Part shown: positions 1 to 6,649 of the stretch, in pieces
How the letters are laid out: each line of letters opens with the position of its first letter
Numbering within the stretch: position 1 is the first letter of the stretch
NCBI GenBank assembly: GCA_963770895.1
Contig: CAVYRF010000001.1
Span: 1,792,001 to 1,856,000, forward strand
Length of the DNA: 64,000 nucleotides
Reading direction: 5' to 3'
From: an uncultured Acidobacteriota bacterium
Lineage (GTDB): Bacteria > Acidobacteriota > Thermoanaerobaculia > Multivoradales > UBA5704
Position numbers and translations under genes: made by a program
Notes under the pieces: model-generated
What the model saw: the letters and a program-made list of their open reading frames with translations, nothing else
What the model was told of the DNA's origin: nothing
Databases searched by the model: none

Positions 1-132
1 CGCGACCTGTTCGAAGAGCTGGGCGCGACGCGCTACCGCGAACGGGTGGAGCAGCTGGCGGCGGCGCGCGGCGAGTCGTGGCTGGAGCGCGCGGCCGGCG
101 GCAGCCAGCCGCCGCCTCAGGCCGGCGGCTGA
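1..132 (+). CDS. 3' end of a gene entering the window (possibly a TPR/ATPase-regulator C-terminus)
   Basis: Frame 1 reads RDLFEELGATRYRERVEQLAAARGESW...GG, stop TGA at 130-132, with typical high-GC3 codons; converges on the gene ending at 117. Confidence 0.55.
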   Translation, partial: RDLFEELGATRYRERVEQLAAARGESWLERAAGGSQPPPQAGG

Positions 133-1223
133 GCCAGGGCGGCGGCCAGCAGGTAGAGCTTGGCGGCGAGCGGCCGGCGGCGGTCGCAGACCAGCTTGAC
201 GTGGCTGAGGACGCGCGCGCAGCGCAGCGCGGCGGCGTCGCGGCCCAGCGGCCAGCGCCCGGGCGCCGTCCACAGGCTGTCCTGTCCCGGCCAGGCGAGC
301 GCCGCGTCGCGCGCCGCGGGCGAGCACAGACCGGCCGCGACCAGGCGGCCCAGCAGGCGCTCCCAGCGCGGATCGCGCCGCGGCTGGCGGGAAAACGAAA
401 CCTCGACGCCGACCCGCGGCCCGATGCTCTCCAGGTGGTGGTCCAGGTCGCAGGACAGGTGCAGGCGGCCGCCCTCGGCGAGCAGCGGCGCCAGCCCGGC
501 GACCCGCGCCGCCGCCGCCGGCGCCCGGAGCCGTTCCAGGAAGGCCACCAGGGGGGGCAGCTCGCTCCAGCCCGCCACCTCCAGGCGCACGGCGCGCGTC
601 CGGCGCGGCTGCAGGGCGAAGACGTAGAGCGGCCGGCCCGGCGGCGGCACCTCGCGCCAGCAGCGCTCCAGCAGCCGGCGCTGCGCGGCCGGCAGCGGCG
701 CGCCGCACATGGCCGGCAGCAACGTGGCGGCAACCCATTCGACCGCGGCCCCGGAGGCGAGCCGGGCGCAGAGGATCGGCTGCGGCAGCGCCGAGGGCGG
801 CGCGAGCGGGAGCGCCGACGCCGGCGCCGGCGGTGGGGGCGGCGCCGGGCGCAGGTCGAACTCCAGCCAGATCGAGGTGGCGTGGGCGCGCCAGTCGGGG
901 CGCGCCGCCCAGGTTCGCAGGAAGCGCTGCCAGCCGGGAGTGGCGGCCGTCGCCGTCGGGTCGCCCCCGTCGGCGGCGCCGCCGCCCAGCGCCAGCGTCA
1001 TCGCCTGGGCGGGACTGGTCACCCGCAACGACAGGTCGACGCGGTGCGGTGTCCTGCCGGCAGGTGTCAGGCTGGTTTCGAACACCAGCGCCCCATCGCC
1101 CGGCAGCCGGCCGGCGAGCGCACGCAGGCTCGCCACCGATCGGCGGCCGGCCAGGCAGGCGGGAAGGCGCGGCAGCACCACCTCCAGCCAGTCCGCCGCG
1201 CTGGCAGAAGCGGCAGGAGGCAC
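117..1223 (-). CDS. Nif11-precursor-associated modifying enzyme, probable ABBA-barrel peptide prenyltransferase-like protein
   Basis: C-terminal part of ORF 117..1529; likely GTG start at 1223 just after the precursor stop. Motifs VFETSL, RVDLSL, IWLEFDL, AVRLEV, IGPRVGVEV, GLCS, SHVKLV..AKLYL. Confidence 0.6.
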   Translation of the reverse strand: MPPAASASAADWLEVVLPRLPACLAGRRSVASLRALAGRLPGDGALVFETSLTPAGRTPHRVDLSLRVTSPAQAMTLALGGGAADGGDPTATAATPGWQRFLRTWAARPDWRAHATSIWLEFDLRPAPPPPPAPASALPLAPPSALPQPILCARLASGAAVEWVAATLLPAMCGAPLPAAQRRLLERCWREVPPPGRPLYVFALQPRRTRAVRLEVAGWSELPPLVAFLERLRAPAAAARVAGLAPLLAEGGRLHLSCDLDHHLESIGPRVGVEVSFSRQPRRDPRWERLLGRLVAAGLCSPAARDAALAWPGQDSLWTAPGRWPLGRDAAALRCARVLSHVKLVCDRRRPLAAKLYLLAAALAQPPA

Positions 1224-1273
1224 GATGTCAGAAGTGTCCGGCGCGGCAGCCGCCGCCGGCCGCGATGGCTGGT

Positions 1274-1516
1274 CTAGCTGCCGCTGGGAGGTGGATCGGT
1301 CGAGCTCCAGCCGCCGGCGGCCAGGTCCAGGTCGTCGTCCGACAGCTCGCCGGCGCGGTTGAGGGCTTCGGCCTCCGCGCGGGTGAAGTCGTAACCGCGC
1401 GCGCGAGCCCATTGCACCGCCGCCTCCAGATCCTGGGAGCGGCGCCGGAACTCCGCCGCCAGTTGGGCATTGCCATCGACATCGGAAAGGAAGCGCTCCA
1501 GCTCTTTCTGGCTCAT
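1274..1516 (-). CDS. Nif11-like leader RiPP precursor; core WSSTDPPPSGS
   Basis: MSQKELERFL...ARARGYDFT...GELSDDDLDLAAGG double-glycine leader followed by an 11-aa core. Confidence 0.9.
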   Translation of the reverse strand: MSQKELERFLSDVDGNAQLAAEFRRRSQDLEAAVQWARARGYDFTRAEAEALNRAGELSDDDLDLAAGGWSSTDPPPSGS

Positions 1517-1881
1517 CGTCCCACCCCACAGAGATACGGCAGCACGAGCTTGCAGCGGCCGCTCATCCTTGTGCCACTTCGAAAGTTAGTGTAGGAGGCG
1601 GGACCGCTCGCGTCAACGACGGGGGAAGCGGCAGAATCGTGTCTTATCCAACCAGATGAATCCATTGCGCTGGATCGCGAGGCATCCGGCAGATGAAGTC
1701 TGTGCCTGATAGCAAGTAGACTGGCATATCTAACTGATTGTTGCCGATTTGGCATGCCGTTCGCATCTCCGGTCGACTGAGCTCCTGCGACGCCGCCCAG
1801 ACCTGAGTCGAACCGGCCTGCCCGCAACCGCGCGTGGCGCCGGCCGGGGGGCGGTGTGGTCGCACGAAACGGGGGTGAACG

Positions 1882-3828
1882 ATGAAGAGCAGGGCGTCTC
1901 GGCTTGGCAGGTCGGTCGGGTTCGCCCGCGGCGCGGGTGGCGTCGCGGTTCTCTGGATCGCCACCGAGGTGGTGCTTGCGGGTGGCGGCGCAGGCCCGGT
2001 CTGGGCGGGACCCGCTACGGCGGGGCCGGCGGCCGGCGGTGGGGCCGGCGCGCCGAGCGCAGGTGGGGCGGTGACGCTGCCGCTTGCACAGTTCGAGGAG
2101 CTGCGGGCGCGCGCGCAGGTCGCGGCCGAGCCGCCGGCTATGCCGCCGGCACCGTTTGCGATCTTGAGCGACCAGGTGGAGATCGCGGTCGGGCCGAGCA
2201 GCGCGGCGGTGTTGCAGCGGCTCACGGTGCGGGTGCTGAGCCGCGATTGGGTGGAGGTGCCGCTGGGCGACGCGGGCTCGCTGGTGGAGGCCGACCTGGG
2301 GGGGCTGGAAGGGCAGGTGCAGGCCGGCCGCGGCGAAACCGTGCTGCGCGTGCGCGGCGCCGGAGACCACCAGCTGCGCCTGAGCTCGGCGGTGGCGGTG
2401 GCCGCCGATTCGGCGGCGACGCGGCCGGCGTGGCGGTTTGCGCTGCGCCTGCCGGTGGCGGCGGTGGTGCACGGCCGGCTGGTGGCGTCACCGGCGCTCG
2501 CCGGCAAGGTCGAGGATGCGGCCCTGGAGGCGGGCGGCTTTGCGGAGCCGGGAAGCGCGGCCGCGGGGTGGAGCTTCGCCGGCGAGCCGGGCCGCGAGCT
2601 GCGCGCCGGGCTTCTGGGGCGCGCGGTGGTGCCGGAGAGGGCGCGGCTGCCGCTGCGTTTCGAGGCCACCTCGGCCAGCTCCCTGACGGTGTCGCGGACC
2701 CGCCTCAAGGTGCGTGCCTGGGTGCAGGCGCGCGTGGCGCAGGGGAGCCTGCCGGAGCTGGTGTTGCGGCTGCCCCAGGGGCTGGTGGTCGAAGGCGTGA
2801 CGGGGACGCAGGTGGCGGGCTGGAAGGTGGCCGACGGCGCCCTGGCGGTGACTCCCTTTACCGCCGCCGAAGATCAGTTGACGGTGGAGGTGGAGCTCAG
2901 CGGCGCGCCGGTGGACGCCCTTGCGGCGCCGCTGCTGGTGCCGGCGGGCGCCGGGCGCACCACCTACCTGGCGCGCGCGGCGGTGCAGGGTGACGGCCTG
3001 CTCGAAGTGGCCGACCGCGGCTCGACGCGGCCGCCCGACGCCGCCGAGATCGCACCCCTGGGCGACCAGGCCGCCGCCTGGACGGCGGGCACCGGCGGCA
3101 AGGCCTGGCTGGTCGGCGACGCCGCGCAGCCGCCGCGCTGGCACGCCCTGTGGGCCGAGCGCACCGAGGTGCTGGCGGCGCAGATCGATCAGCTCTGGCT
3201 GGAGGTGGCCGCCGGTGAGGCGGGGCGCGCGACCTACCAGGTGTGGGCGCTGGTGCGCAACCGCGGCAGCACCGACCTGGAACTGCTGCCACCGGCCGGA
3301 TTCGAGCTGCGACAGGCGAGCCGCGATGGCGTGCCGATGCCCGTGGGGATGGCTGCCGGCGGCGGCCTGACGATGCCGCTGCTGGCGCGCGAGGCGCCGC
3401 AGGTGATCCACCTGTCCGGCCTGGTACCGCTGCAGCTGCCCACAGGAAAAGGGGAGCTGGCGGTGCCGCTGCCGGCGCTTTCGGCCCCCGCCGCGCGCAT
3501 CGACGTGCGGCTGCTGCTGCCGGCCGCCGGCCGCGCCTACGCGCTGGCGGACCGCACGCGCGCGGCGCCGGCCGCGGTGCCGCCGCCGTCGCCGTCGCCG
3601 TCGCCAGCGGCGACGGGCGCGACGCCACCGGGGGCGCTGGGTGGCGGCGACCTCGCGGCGCAGGTCCGGCAGCTGCCTGCCGCGGCGGCGGTCCTCGACC
3701 GCGCCCTGCCCGGCGAGCTTCCGCAGGGCTTTGTCGAGCTGAATGCGAGCTGGAGCGCGCTGTCCGCAACACCGGGACCGCTTGCCATCTCCGTGATGGC
3801 GCGAAAGGACGGTGAGCCATGGTTCTGA
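1882..3828 (+). CDS. Secreted/exported hypothetical protein (first of a related pair)
   Basis: 648-aa ORF with coherent GC3 bias and an N-terminal hydrophobic segment; overlaps the start of the next gene; GAVTLPLAQFEEL resembles GEVSLSLKDYLTL of the next ORF. Confidence 0.8.
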   Translation: MKSRASRLGRSVGFARGAGGVAVLWIATEVVLAGGGAGPVWAGPATAGPAAGGGAGAPSAGGAVTLPLAQFEELRARAQVAAEPPAMPPAPFAILSDQVEIAVGPSSAAVLQRLTVRVLSRDWVEVPLGDAGSLVEADLGGLEGQVQAGRGETVLRVRGAGDHQLRLSSAVAVAADSAATRPAWRFALRLPVAAVVHGRLVASPALAGKVEDAALEAGGFAEPGSAAAGWSFAGEPGRELRAGLLGRAVVPERARLPLRFEATSASSLTVSRTRLKVRAWVQARVAQGSLPELVLRLPQGLVVEGVTGTQVAGWKVADGALAVTPFTAAEDQLTVEVELSGAPVDALAAPLLVPAGAGRTTYLARAAVQGDGLLEVADRGSTRPPDAAEIAPLGDQAAAWTAGTGGKAWLVGDAAQPPRWHALWAERTEVLAAQIDQLWLEVAAGEAGRATYQVWALVRNRGSTDLELLPPAGFELRQASRDGVPMPVGMAAGGGLTMPLLAREAPQVIHLSGLVPLQLPTGKGELAVPLPALSAPAARIDVRLLLPAAGRAYALADRTRAAPAAVPPPSPSPSPAATGATPPGALGGGDLAAQVRQLPAAAAVLDRALPGELPQGFVELNASWSALSATPGPLAISVMARKDGEPWF

Positions 3829-6218
3829 GCAGAAGATTCGTCGTCGTCGTTGTCGCCGCCTCGACGGTGATCGCCGCCTCCTCCGCCTGCTTCCCGGCCG
3901 CGGCGGCGGAGGTGCAGCCGGCGCGCGCGGGCGAGGTCAGCCTGTCGCTCAAGGACTACCTGACTCTCAAGGACAGCGCGGAGCGCGCCGACACGCAGCG
4001 GCAGGCGGCGGCGCACCGCGAGGCGCCGGTCGCCGCGGTGGCGGCGCAGCACACGGCCGTCGACGTCGGCCGCGCCGGCGGCACCACCGCCGCCCCAGGC
4101 GGGGCGCGCGCGGCGCTCGCGGCGCGTTTCTCGTCGCAGCTCGAAGTCCTGGTGCAGGGTCGGCCGCAACAGCCGATCGCGCTGCCGTCGGCCGGCCTGG
4201 TGTCGGCGGTCGAGGTGCTCCCGGCCGGCTCCGGCGCGACGGCGGCCGGCGCCGGACCGCACGGACCAGGGCTTTTCCTGGTCGCCCCGGAGGCGGGGCG
4301 CTACGGCGTGCGGGTGCGCAGCGAAGAGCGCGTCGTCGACGACTTCGGGGTGAGCCGCGTGGCGTTGCCGCCGATCTTGGCGCCGGTCGCCGCGATGGAT
4401 GTGACGCTCCCCGCCGACCTGGCCTGGGAGTGCGCCGGCATGGTGGTCATCGAGGATCGCGTCGACGGCGGCAGCCGGCGGCTGCGGCTGTCAGGTCCGC
4501 GCGGCCTCGAGCCGGTGCTGGTGCTGCGCCAGGCGGTGGCGGGCGATCAGGCGGCGGAGCTGCTGGTGCAGGACGTCGCCGCCACCCTGCTGCAGCTGCG
4601 TCCGGAAGGGCTGCGGCGCCAGGACGTCATCCTGTACGAGGTGAAGCGCGGCGGTCTGGCCGACCTGGTGGTCGATCTGCCGCCCGGCCTGGAGGTGGAA
4701 CGCGCGGCGACCGACGAAGGGCTGGTGACCGCGGTCGCGGAAGGGCGCCGCCTCACCGTGCACCGCCGCCAACGCCTCACAGGGAGCGGCTACCTGGTGC
4801 TCACCTCGCGCCCGCCGGGAGGCCCCGGCCTGCTGCCGCTGGCGGCGGTCGCGCCGCAGCCGGCGCCGCGGGCCCGCTATCTCGCGGTGGCCGCCACGGT
4901 GCCGGGCCGCCTGGCGCCGCAACCGGCCGCGGCCTGGACGCGCGTCGACCTGGACGACCTGCCGGCTCCGCTCCAGGGAGCGCTCACGGCGCTCGACTCC
5001 ACCAGCGCCTGGCGCCAGGCGGCGGACGGCCGCGACGCCGCGGCGGTCGAATGGAGCACGACACCACAGGCCAGCAGCCTGGAGACCGTGGTGCAGCGGC
5101 GCCAGACCACGACGCTGCTCAGCGCCGACGGCACCCTTTTGCATCGCGACAGCTTCGAGCTGGCGCAGGCGGGAGCGGTGCTGTCGCTGGACCTCCCCGC
5201 CGGCGCCACGCTGTGGTCGGCGGCGATCGACGGCACCGCGGTGCGGCCGTTGCAGCGCGGCAGCCGGCTCGACGTGCCGCTCGGCGGCGGCGCCCGCGTG
5301 GTCGAGGTGGTGGAGGTCCTGCCGCGCGCCATCGCAGCGGGCGGCAGGTCGCGGCTCAGCTTCGAGCTGGCGCAGGTCGCGGCTCCGGTCGTCGAACACC
5401 GCTGGCGGCTGCTGCTGCCGGCCAGCGCGCGCTATCGCTTTGCCGGCGGCTCGCTGCAACCCATCCCGGCGCCGCAGCCGGCGGCGGCGGACATGGCGGT
5501 ACGAGCGAAGGTCCGCTGGCTGGGGCCGGTGCCGACGGCCAGGGATCCGTGGGTGATCCTGCAGTCGACTCCGGGCGTGATGACCGATCGCGTCAACCGC
5601 GGTGGCAACGAGAGCGGCCAGAATTCGGCCTACGTCCGTCCGGCCTCGGGAGCGTCCGCGGCACTGCAAGGGCAGGTCACCGATCCCGGTGGTACGCCGC
5701 TCCCCGGCGTCGACATCAGCCTGGCGCCGGTGGAGCAGCAGGGGCAGAAGCTGACGCAGGTGTCGGGGCCGGATGGGCGGTTTGCCTTTACCGGCGTGTC
5801 CGCCGGCCAGTATCACCTGAAGGCCCAGCTCGACGGCTTCGCGGTGACCGAGGTCCCCAACGTGCGCCTCGATGCGGGGGCCGCGCAAGCCGTCGAGCTG
5901 GTGCTGAGCAACACGACCGAAGAGGTGATCACCGTGACCTCTGAGGCGCCGCTGCTCGACGAGCGCAGGCTGAGCACCGGCGCCACGGTGTCCACGGCGG
6001 ACATGCGCCAGGTGCCCACTGCCAGGGCGCCGGCCGCGCCGGCGCCGGCATCGCCCCAGCTGCTCGACGAGCTCCACAACGGCCTGGCCGGCGGCGTCCG
6101 GCCGCTGCCGATCAGCGTGCCGGAGAGCGGCAAGGCGCTGCTCCTTGCGGGCGTCCTGCCGCCGGCGCGCGTCACCCTCGAGCTCGAGGTGAAGGCCGAC
6201 CGCCGGCACGGCGACTGA
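3819..6218 (+). CDS. Secreted protein with carboxypeptidase-regulatory-like domain and TonB-receptor N-terminal/plug segments
   Basis: Signal peptide; LQGQVTDPGGTPLPGV...DGRFAFTGVSAGQYHLKAQLDGF domain; PTARDPWVILQSTPGV and EEVITVTSEAPLLDERR motifs. Confidence 0.8.
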   Translation: MVLSRRFVVVVVAASTVIAASSACFPAAAAEVQPARAGEVSLSLKDYLTLKDSAERADTQRQAAAHREAPVAAVAAQHTAVDVGRAGGTTAAPGGARAALAARFSSQLEVLVQGRPQQPIALPSAGLVSAVEVLPAGSGATAAGAGPHGPGLFLVAPEAGRYGVRVRSEERVVDDFGVSRVALPPILAPVAAMDVTLPADLAWECAGMVVIEDRVDGGSRRLRLSGPRGLEPVLVLRQAVAGDQAAELLVQDVAATLLQLRPEGLRRQDVILYEVKRGGLADLVVDLPPGLEVERAATDEGLVTAVAEGRRLTVHRRQRLTGSGYLVLTSRPPGGPGLLPLAAVAPQPAPRARYLAVAATVPGRLAPQPAAAWTRVDLDDLPAPLQGALTALDSTSAWRQAADGRDAAAVEWSTTPQASSLETVVQRRQTTTLLSADGTLLHRDSFELAQAGAVLSLDLPAGATLWSAAIDGTAVRPLQRGSRLDVPLGGGARVVEVVEVLPRAIAAGGRSRLSFELAQVAAPVVEHRWRLLLPASARYRFAGGSLQPIPAPQPAAADMAVRAKVRWLGPVPTARDPWVILQSTPGVMTDRVNRGGNESGQNSAYVRPASGASAALQGQVTDPGGTPLPGVDISLAPVEQQGQKLTQVSGPDGRFAFTGVSAGQYHLKAQLDGFAVTEVPNVRLDAGAAQAVELVLSNTTEEVITVTSEAPLLDERRLSTGATVSTADMRQVPTARAPAAPAPASPQLLDELHNGLAGGVRPLPISVPESGKALLLAGVLPPARVTLELEVKADRRHGD

Positions 6219-6424: not shown

Positions 6425-6649
6425 ATGAACCGTACGCGATGTCTCCTGTTGGGCCTGGCGGTCGGGTTGATGATGCTGGCGGGCAGAGCGCAGGTCGAGG
6501 CCGTGCCGTGCGAAGAGTGCATCTGCCTCCAGAACTGCGAGGCCATCGAGACGCAATGCCTGGATCGCTGCGACGGCAACGGTACCTGCGAGACCAACTG
6601 CGAGCACGAATACGCCACCTGCTACGACGGCTGCCTGGGCATCCGCTGA
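6425..6649 (+). CDS. Small secreted Cys-rich protein, (CX3C)4 pattern
   Basis: SD aaggag upstream; signal peptide ending VEA; CLQNC-6-CLDRC-DGNGT-CETNC-6-CYDGC. Confidence 0.85.
   Translation: MNRTRCLLLGLAVGLMMLAGRAQVEAVPCEECICLQNCEAIETQCLDRCDGNGTCETNCEHEYATCYDGCLGIR

Follow-up and report, generated by a model that had tools for sequence, protein, structure and literature searches.

We examined a window of 64,000 nucleotides on contig CAVYRF010000001.1 of GCA_963770895.1, the genome of an uncultured acidobacterium of the class Thermoanaerobaculia. At its left end, two reverse-strand genes encode the precursor of a ribosomally synthesised and post-translationally modified peptide (RiPP) with a Nif11-type leader and, downstream of it, an enzyme with the predicted fold of an ABBA-barrel peptide prenyltransferase. 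The pair most likely makes a short linear peptide that is lipidated on its sole tryptophan. A preliminary description, made from the sequence alone, had proposed a system of this kind.

The precursor and enzyme genes

The precursor gene (1274..1516, −) encodes 80 amino acids that match the Nif11 families PF07862 (E 1.4e-10, 41.7 bits against a cut-off of 23.8) and TIGR03798 (45.7 bits, cut-off 32.3), and the genome holds no second Nif11 match at E ≤ 0.01. The structured Nif11 part of the leader, delimited by the profile matches, spans residues 1–48 (1373..1516, −). Beyond it, the C-terminus reads L58-SDDD-L63-DLAAGG followed by the core. Cleavage after Gly68-Gly69 would separate a 69-aa leader from the 11-aa core WSSTDPPPSGS (1277..1309, −), which lacks Cys, just as the preliminary description had read it. 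The codon of Trp70, the putative prenylation site, lies at 1307-1309, and the L(X)4L motif (Leu58 and Leu63) with the double-glycine (GG) cleavage site at 1310..1345 (−). Across 46 aligned precursors L63, A67, G68 and G69 are invariant and L58 nearly so, and both the motif and the GG site stand before a variable core.

A sigma70-like promoter precedes the precursor gene (1588..1616, −), where the arrangement TTGACG-17-TACACT at 1616-1588 was observed once against 0.0 expected in shuffled sequences; by eye, many relatives show comparable −35/−10 spacing upstream of the precursor. In the upstream regions of 71 precursors, counts of 6-mers, the only method applied here, revealed promoter and ribosome-binding elements but no conserved regulator site besides.

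The enzyme gene lies downstream on the same strand with its stop side at 117 (117..1223, −). Its start is likely the GTG at 1223, favoured because homologs align from there. This gives 368 aa, in keeping with the protein of roughly 370 aa first described, while the database gene call begins at 1181 (354 aa). A search of the genome matched the enzyme once, so it is single-copy.

The enzyme has a predicted ABBA prenyltransferase fold

The AlphaFold2 model of the enzyme, built on a 112-row alignment, reached a predicted local distance difference test (pLDDT) score of 92.9 and a predicted TM-score (pTM) of 0.91. It contains ten long strands, arranged in pairs with helices between the pairs, as in a ten-stranded ABBA barrel, and all seven short β-like motifs picked out beforehand (FETSL, DLSL, WLEFD, VRL, GVEV, SHVKL and KLYL) fall on its β-strands. 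In a fold search of 48,161 solved chains, the 19 top matches were all ABBA prenyltransferases (Z 11–17) and the next match scored Z 6.5. The best was MpnD (Z 17.3, root-mean-square deviation (rmsd) 4.3, 295 aligned), with CymD (Z 16.8), 6-DMATS (16.7), PatF (12.6), PagF (12.2) and DciF (11.2) among the others. Foldseek agreed with this assignment. Indole prenyltransferases outranked structures of the cyanobactin F family (Z 15–17 versus 11–13), and sequence identity to solved prenyltransferases is only 7–17%, at an rmsd of about 4–5 Å.

Seven residues (E49, D63, D123, R213, K343, K355 and Y357) are invariant in 112/112 sequences and lie on or at the ends of barrel strands, within the seven motifs just named. 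By analogy, they may serve as the base and in metal and diphosphate binding. The modelling thus supports the ABBA prenyltransferase fold, for which the preliminary description had suggested structure prediction and Foldseek among its checks.

A single tryptophan marks the cores of related precursors

The neighbourhoods of enzyme homologs were surveyed in 120 loci, the window's own included and two window duplicates and three plasmid loci excluded. In 92 loci the enzyme match reached at least 250 bits and the upstream sequence extended for 300 nt or more. A GG-leader precursor lies directly upstream of the enzyme in 87 of them, or in 78/83 after clustering the enzymes at 95% and 45/50 after clustering at 70%. 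These loci gave 83 distinct precursors and 70 distinct cores (two of them, from L036 and L041, belonging to more distant enzymes), and every one has exactly one Trp. The expectation that homologs would occur beside precursors with a conserved Trp was therefore borne out.

In the 70 cores, Trp stands at positions 1 to 6 in 21, 13, 11, 23, 1 and 1 cases, so that 49/70 carry it at positions 2–6; an N-terminal Trp, stressed in the preliminary description, is not a requirement. The cores are 5–28 residues long, acidic and Gly/Pro-rich, and their 837 residues include zero Phe, Tyr, His and Arg. No Ser or Thr is present in 19/70, for example AWPPP and DGWPPA. The cores diverge widely outside the Trp and vary even inside the genus. 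As a control, 27 other GG cores at the same loci have Trp within the first six residues in 5 cases, 3 of which are extra or displaced partners, leaving 2/24; an early Trp would be expected by chance from composition at about 0.095. These comparisons give strong support for Trp as the prenylation target. Of the two targets first suggested, Trp1 or Ser/Thr, the tryptophan is the one supported, and Ser/Thr or N-terminal prenylation was rejected on the core statistics.

The closest published precedent is MppC, an ABBA enzyme from the mpp cluster of Moorea producens that transfers geranyl to C5 of one Trp in a lanthipeptide with a Nif11 leader, requires the folded leader part and an L(X)4L motif, and favours the LanM-cyclised core over the linear core (PMC12715784). 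LanM also divides the loci surveyed here. Where at least 2.5 kb of upstream sequence was available (49 loci, duplicates kept), a LanM match above 300 bits accompanies 10/10 Cys-containing cores, which are of the WCG[ND]E type, and 0/39 Cys-free cores; two Cys-free loci have weaker LanM matches of 189 and 219 bits. By sequence, this split divides the enzyme clade into a minority MppC-like lanthipeptide branch and a majority linear branch, to which the window belongs: its core is free of Cys, and the closest LanC-like gene lies at a distance of about 212 kb.

The loci with LanM upstream (L011, L015, L019, L020, L023, L057, L061, L066, L069, L090 and L091) share near-constant WCG[ND]E[TLIS]T[IT]G cores. 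This sub-branch, which occupies two places on the enzyme tree, comprises candidate prenylated lanthipeptides in Thermoanaerobaculia.

Predicted leader recognition

A model of the enzyme–precursor complex scored 0.67, against 0.22 for the best control. The mark used for this score is reached by 116/157 solved and 2/215 mismatched pairs, a calibration that is roughly valid here, where our own alignments were used. Model runs shared at least 66% of contacts, with a partner pLDDT of at least 77. In the model, enzyme Trp318 contacts leader residues 30, 33, 49, 52 and 53, in and next to the structured Nif11 part, while Leu58 and Leu63 dock at enzyme residues 280, 312-314, 334-338 and 363, the contacts of lowest predicted error. 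These predictions support an enzyme that binds both the folded part of the leader and L(X)4L, as reported for MppC.

Trp318 belongs to the loop D315-S-L-W318 (270..281, −), a putative docking element for the Nif11 fold. The corresponding [DE][ST]xW motif occurs in 66/69 enzymes paired with Nif11 leaders and in 0/8 whose partner has a short leader without the Nif11 fold, a pattern recorded before the complex-model result was obtained. The eight short-leader pairs are scattered on the tree (8 changes), and precursors without the Nif11 fold still keep the GG site and the L(X)4L motif. The joint loss of Trp318 and the Nif11 fold is only suggestive of leader docking through Trp318.

Precursors of the short type, with leaders of about 31–44 aa and enzymes without the Trp318 motif, were seen at L016, L035, L038, L050, L094, L096 and L097; L035 has two tandem Trp precursors.

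Relationship to characterised prenyltransferases

A profile search with the enzyme collected 3,390 representatives at E ≤ 0.001. Among 24 of the more distant homologs that were scanned, 4 are fused to the C-terminal domain of a squalene-hopene cyclase and 3 to an S-adenosylmethionine (SAM) methyltransferase. The cyclase-fused homologs constitute a large group, with Nostoc proteins among its members, and one homolog of this kind, P0155, shares 30% identity with the window enzyme (E 2e-22). Cyanobacterial homologs are numerous; of three cyanobacterial plasmid loci, two are annotated with Nif11 precursors, one of these also with LanM, and the third is unannotated. Relatives bearing the enzyme are predominantly acidobacterial (23/25 loci in Thermoanaerobaculia/Acidobacteriota), and in a FastTree phylogeny of 76 rows the acidobacterial enzymes form one clade (support 99) apart from the cyanobacterial and fused homologs. 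Together with the Cys-free core, this agrees with the linear, non-cyanobacterial product foreseen in the preliminary description. Other homologs carry two tandem prenyltransferase domains (P0113, P0121 and P0139) or are the class I SAM methyltransferase fusions (P0150, P0170 and P0172).

The window system resembles MppC/MppE in its ABBA prenyltransferase, GG-ended Nif11-like leader, L(X)4L motif and probable Trp target, and, in our model, in an enzyme aromatic residue inserted into the folded part of the leader. The loops differ: cyanobacterial homologs have a longer WGD[RL]F-type loop, which may hold the equivalents of MppC W336 and F340, whereas the acidobacterial clade has [DE][ST]xW there, and none of the fetched homologs has both W336 and F340 at the MppC positions. 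The mpp transporters are without a peptidase domain according to PMC11791876, whereas the window cassette has a C39 exporter and a cyclase linked to it.

A second probable relative is NctPC (Hubrich et al. 2024), in which an ABBA domain that geranylgeranylates Trp is joined to a terpene cyclase (PMC13290415). This domain has low similarity to the cyanobactin enzymes and acts on Trp, as the window enzyme probably does, and homologs of the window enzyme share the fusion to a terpene cyclase. The window enzyme itself stands alone, with no terpene cyclase nearby; the genome matches are at C1:13 kb and 620 kb, C1 being the contig of the window. No cyclised isoprenoid is therefore expected.

The ABBA barrel is shared with the cyanobactin F enzymes PagF, PatF and DciF and with the bacterial indole prenyltransferases MpnD, CymD, 6-DMATS and PriB, and the initial comparison with DMATS and cyanobactin F enzymes was correct for the fold. 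It did not hold for closest kinship. The window enzyme matches neither the cyanobactin F profile (PatF/LynF/TruF), whose members are leader-independent (PMC12715784), nor PF11991, the family of DMATS and indole prenyltransferases, which act on free Trp or small indoles. For the latter, one language-model neighbour was found at 0.90, with PF11991 on 22% of its members. No PatA or PatG protease or cyanobactin recognition sequence, for which no dedicated search was made, appeared among the annotated neighbours. The nearest known kin are probably the leader-dependent MppC and NctPC, rather than cyanobactin F enzymes or free-Trp DMATS, and the chemistry would be a variant of the published Trp prenylation of Nif11-leader peptides by ABBA enzymes, here without a lanthionine ring. 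In the open literature, no LanM-free acidobacterial branch or link to a cyclase was found, though clusters of this sort may already appear in Hubrich et al. 2024/2026 or in the supplementary genome mining of PMC12715784.

An export cassette converges on the enzyme gene

The preliminary description took the locus for a minimal two-gene system with no adjacent peptidase or exporter, so that processing and export would act in trans. This was an artefact of the window edge. Immediately to the left, on the opposite strand, an operon runs toward the enzyme gene and encodes TolC (G000:C1:1779915-1781537, +), HlyD (G000:C1:1781534-1782775, +; TIGR03794 over cut-off), a C39-ABC peptidase exporter (G000:C1:1782768-1784981, +; TIGR03796, PF03412), a second ABC protein, ABC2 (G000:C1:1784995-1787967, +; TIGR03797 over cut-off), a cyclic nucleotide monophosphate (cNMP)-binding protein (G000:C1:1788023-1788592, +) and, as its last gene, a class III cyclase of 1141 aa (G000:C1:1788707-1792132, +). 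Only the 3′ end of the last gene enters the window (1..132), where it overlaps the 3′ end of the enzyme gene by 16 nt. Its product combines zinc-ribbon, class III cyclase, AAA and tetratricopeptide-repeat (TPR) domains and is the only cyclase-AAA-TPR protein of its type in the genome.

The four transport genes lie 4–12 kb from the enzyme. The C39 exporter, 7–9 kb away, scores 1073 versus 853 bits with TIGR03796 and is the only one over that cut-off genome-wide; the pair shares a conserved cassette with this dedicated exporter. All three families of the NHLP/Nif11 bacteriocin export system, as given by Haft et al. 2010 (PMC2887384; TIGR03796, TIGR03797 and TIGR03794), are matched over cut-off; the acidobacterial operon differs in its last gene, which encodes a specific cyclase and points toward the prenyltransferase pair. 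Matches of cassette proteins to TIGR03903 and TIGR03896 were weak and below cut-off.

The order of the cassette is kept in 5/5 further enzyme-bearing genomes that were opened (the cNMP gene was seen in 2), whereas exporter-only genomes (3/3) have classic Trp-free NHLP precursors, no cyclase and no enzyme. Across loci, the cassette contains or adjoins varying cargo RiPP genes while the enzyme–cyclase pair stays fixed. An ADOP permease lies nearby in 4/26 loci, and no importer was seen to be a fixed part of the cassette. Three polyprenyl synthases are encoded elsewhere in the genome and none in the cassette; the length of the prenyl donor is therefore not readable from context. Histidine kinase and START-domain genes, upstream in 11/26 loci and absent from the window locus, were set aside as local synteny.

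Two further features accompany the cassette. A DUF7005 gene (L001:4716-5903; G000:C1:1778716-1779903), divergent from TolC, occupies the same place in 4/5 other cassettes and follows the second ABC gene in 2/3 exporter-only loci. At about G000:C1 1762100-1776200 (L126), 16–30 kb left of the window, lie two short GG precursors with Asn-rich, Trp-free cores, one ending in NNNGGC, together with genes for a radical SAM protein, a flavoprotein, two B12-radical SAM proteins, a carbamoyltransferase and a GDSL-like protein; this cargo is probably served by the same C39 exporter.

Co-occurrence of enzyme and cyclase

A survey of 300 genomes from the order found the enzyme in 93, the cyclase ortholog in 90 and the exporter in 114. 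Enzyme and cyclase were both present in 86, the enzyme alone in 7, the cyclase alone in 4 and neither in 203, so that 86 of the 97 genomes with either have both. Within the 114 exporter genomes, 74 have both, 34 neither and 6 one only. A class-wide sample of 201 genomes contained the enzyme in 10, the cyclase in 7 and the exporter in 35, and all 7 cyclase genomes have the enzyme. At the level of loci, a convergent cyclase is present in 48 of the 69 with at least 1 kb downstream (47/64 clustered). The cassette was found in 66/91 sampled genomes of the host family.

The cyclase copies examined have intact catalytic motifs (27/27), and the TPR region contains many invariant aromatic residues. Pfam matches revealed no evident membrane or extracellular domain. 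The TPR model matched superhelices of TPR proteins that bind ligands, namely APPBP2 (Z 31.0), MalT domain III (28.4), Rap-peptide (24.9), AimR (22.4) and NprR (21.3), a shared repeat fold that is no proof of function, and a language-model search with the TPR part yielded nothing beyond generic TPR clusters. In the cyclase domain (L001:14707-18132), Gln and Thr stand at the two usual purine-selecting positions (NQFLGDG, YTA[IV]G) in 27/27 copies; by analogy, nucleotide selection may be relaxed or out of the ordinary. Only 7/27 cyclases match a strict Walker A pattern.

Proposed function and its alternatives

We propose the following sequence of events. The precursor and enzyme genes would be transcribed from their own promoter. 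The enzyme would bind the intact precursor, with Trp318 on the folded Nif11 part and Leu58 and Leu63 in surface grooves, as the complex model predicts. A prenyl diphosphate would then ionise in the barrel, and its cation would alkylate the indole of Trp70 in the linear, unstapled core, a step suggested by the fold, the invariant residues and the core statistics; by analogy with MppC and NctPC, a C10–C20 donor is likelier than C5. Judging from family assignment and linkage, the C39-ABC/ABC2/HlyD/TolC system would cut after Gly-Gly and secrete prenyl-WSSTDPPPSGS. Taken jointly, leader binding, Trp70 indole prenylation on a linear core, and GG cleavage with export are highly probable. The last step, in which the product signals and is tied to the convergent cyclase-AAA-TPR protein and to export of variable, nearby-encoded cargo RiPPs, is the weakest.

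Several observations weigh against this account. The enzyme matches no Pfam or NCBIfam family at E ≤ 1, nor do 30 of its homologs at E ≤ 0.5; it has no PDB sequence match, and its Ser51 replaces an Arg found in 85/112 relatives. Kinship with MppC and NctPC rests on architecture and context, not on alignment, and MppC prefers a lanthionine-cyclised core, whereas the window core, without Cys, cannot be cyclised that way. On the side of the comparative counts, the precursor pattern was relaxed once, after the misses had been inspected; five loci were still left without an upstream partner (at L006 it lies 1.3 kb downstream), and the relatives are not independent of one another. Three Nif11-paired enzymes lack the [DE][ST]xW motif, and where branches are strongly supported, its co-loss with the Nif11 fold amounts to no more than 3 independent pairs (sign test p 0.25). 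Finally, in 12 of the 86 enzyme-plus-cyclase genomes the exporter was not found at E ≤ 1e-250, most of these genomes being less than 95% complete or fragmented.

As to the role of the product, we tentatively suggest that the secreted, Trp-prenylated linear peptide binds as a ligand to the TPR sensor with which the convergent STAND-type nucleotide cyclase is equipped, and that the resulting cyclic nucleotide, acting via the cNMP-binding protein, gates the export or production of cargo RiPPs, lineage-wide in Thermoanaerobaculia. Signalling is weakly favoured because the peptide is short, acidic and variable, would be fixed only in its lipidated Trp, and is kept with one intact cyclase. We nonetheless regard this role as rather doubtful, because shared inheritance of the cassette explains the linkage without any ligand, resemblance between TPR folds is generic and no obvious route of import was seen.

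Such a peptide would resemble the ComX pheromone of Bacillus. ComX is read by a membrane kinase. Its sequence varies between relatives, as pherotypes, and the cores of the precursors related to that of the window likewise vary. ComQ has a trans-isoprenyl-diphosphate-synthase fold, in contrast to the ABBA barrel, Nif11 leader, C39 export and soluble cyclase-AAA-TPR protein found here. Both systems involve a short linear peptide with one prenylated Trp, probable in our case, as a signal or candidate signal (for ComX, PMC13290415).

It is entirely possible, without being probable, that the same chemistry yields a secreted antimicrobial or surface-active lipopeptide and that the cyclase is linked to it only by inheritance of the cassette. 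NCBIfam contains cyclase and cNMP families named for bacteriocin transport (TIGR03903 and TIGR03896, the weak matches above), and all co-occurring genomes are kin within one order. Genome G209 retains the exporter, the cNMP protein, a cargo precursor and the cyclase with no enzyme within 8 kb downstream or elsewhere at E ≤ 1e-60, which also argues against strict coupling. Yet the short, acidic, Gly/Pro-rich and Arg-free cores are unlike cationic antimicrobial peptides. The 34 of 114 exporter genomes without enzyme and cyclase argue that these two track each other and not the exporter, and the enzyme–cyclase pair is fixed while the cargo RiPP genes change.

It is improbable that the prenylated precursor or core remains intracellular, unsecreted, and there binds the cyclase or exporter as a ligand or tethers either to the membrane. 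This would fit a cyclase with no evident membrane or extracellular domain, for which an exported peptide would need re-import, no importer having been seen as a fixed part of the cassette; but the GG site and L(X)4L are conserved even where the Nif11 fold is lost, and a C39 exporter is linked.

We think it very unlikely that the barrel has been repurposed to bind the precursor and to catalyse another reaction at Trp, or none. The low identity and high rmsd to solved enzymes and the deviating Ser51 would allow this, but the Arg, Lys, Lys and Tyr and the Asp, Asp and Glu are invariant on the barrel strands, and homologs are often fused to terpene-cyclase domains, whose substrate is a prenyl chain that has already been transferred.

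That the enzyme acts like the cyanobactin F enzymes, independently of the leader, and prenylates Ser/Thr or the N-terminal amine freed by cleavage, as the five Ser/Thr and first-position Trp of the window core and the F-family fold matches might suggest, is extremely improbable given the cores without Ser/Thr or with Trp at positions 2–6, the lower rank of the F-family matches and the predicted docking of the leader.

Other features of the window and genome

To the right of the promoter, 1882-6218 (+) contains two large divergent genes of 648 and 799 aa, the second with a carboxypeptidase-regulatory-like domain and otherwise no family; they are not conserved beside relatives. An open reading frame of 74 aa at 6425-6649 (+), with a signal-peptide-like start and eight Cys, possibly encodes a small secreted disulfide-rich peptide. 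The genome is RiPP-rich, with 14 LanC-like matches and further GG-leader peptides at C1:845114 and C2:3337781.

Significance

The window locus exemplifies a putative lanthionine-free branch of leader-dependent Trp prenyltransferases with about 70 natural substrates, down to five residues in length, which would be useful for enzymatic peptide lipidation. The natural loss of the Nif11 fold together with Trp318 offers a handle for testing the model of leader recognition. If the cyclase does read the peptide, the cassette would give a bacterial group that is mostly uncultured a means of communicating by peptides, and would account for the cyclases and cNMP-binding proteins that travel with NHLP exporters. 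Such a system would amount to a ComX-like pheromone assembled from wholly different parts, with a cyclase as its receptor.

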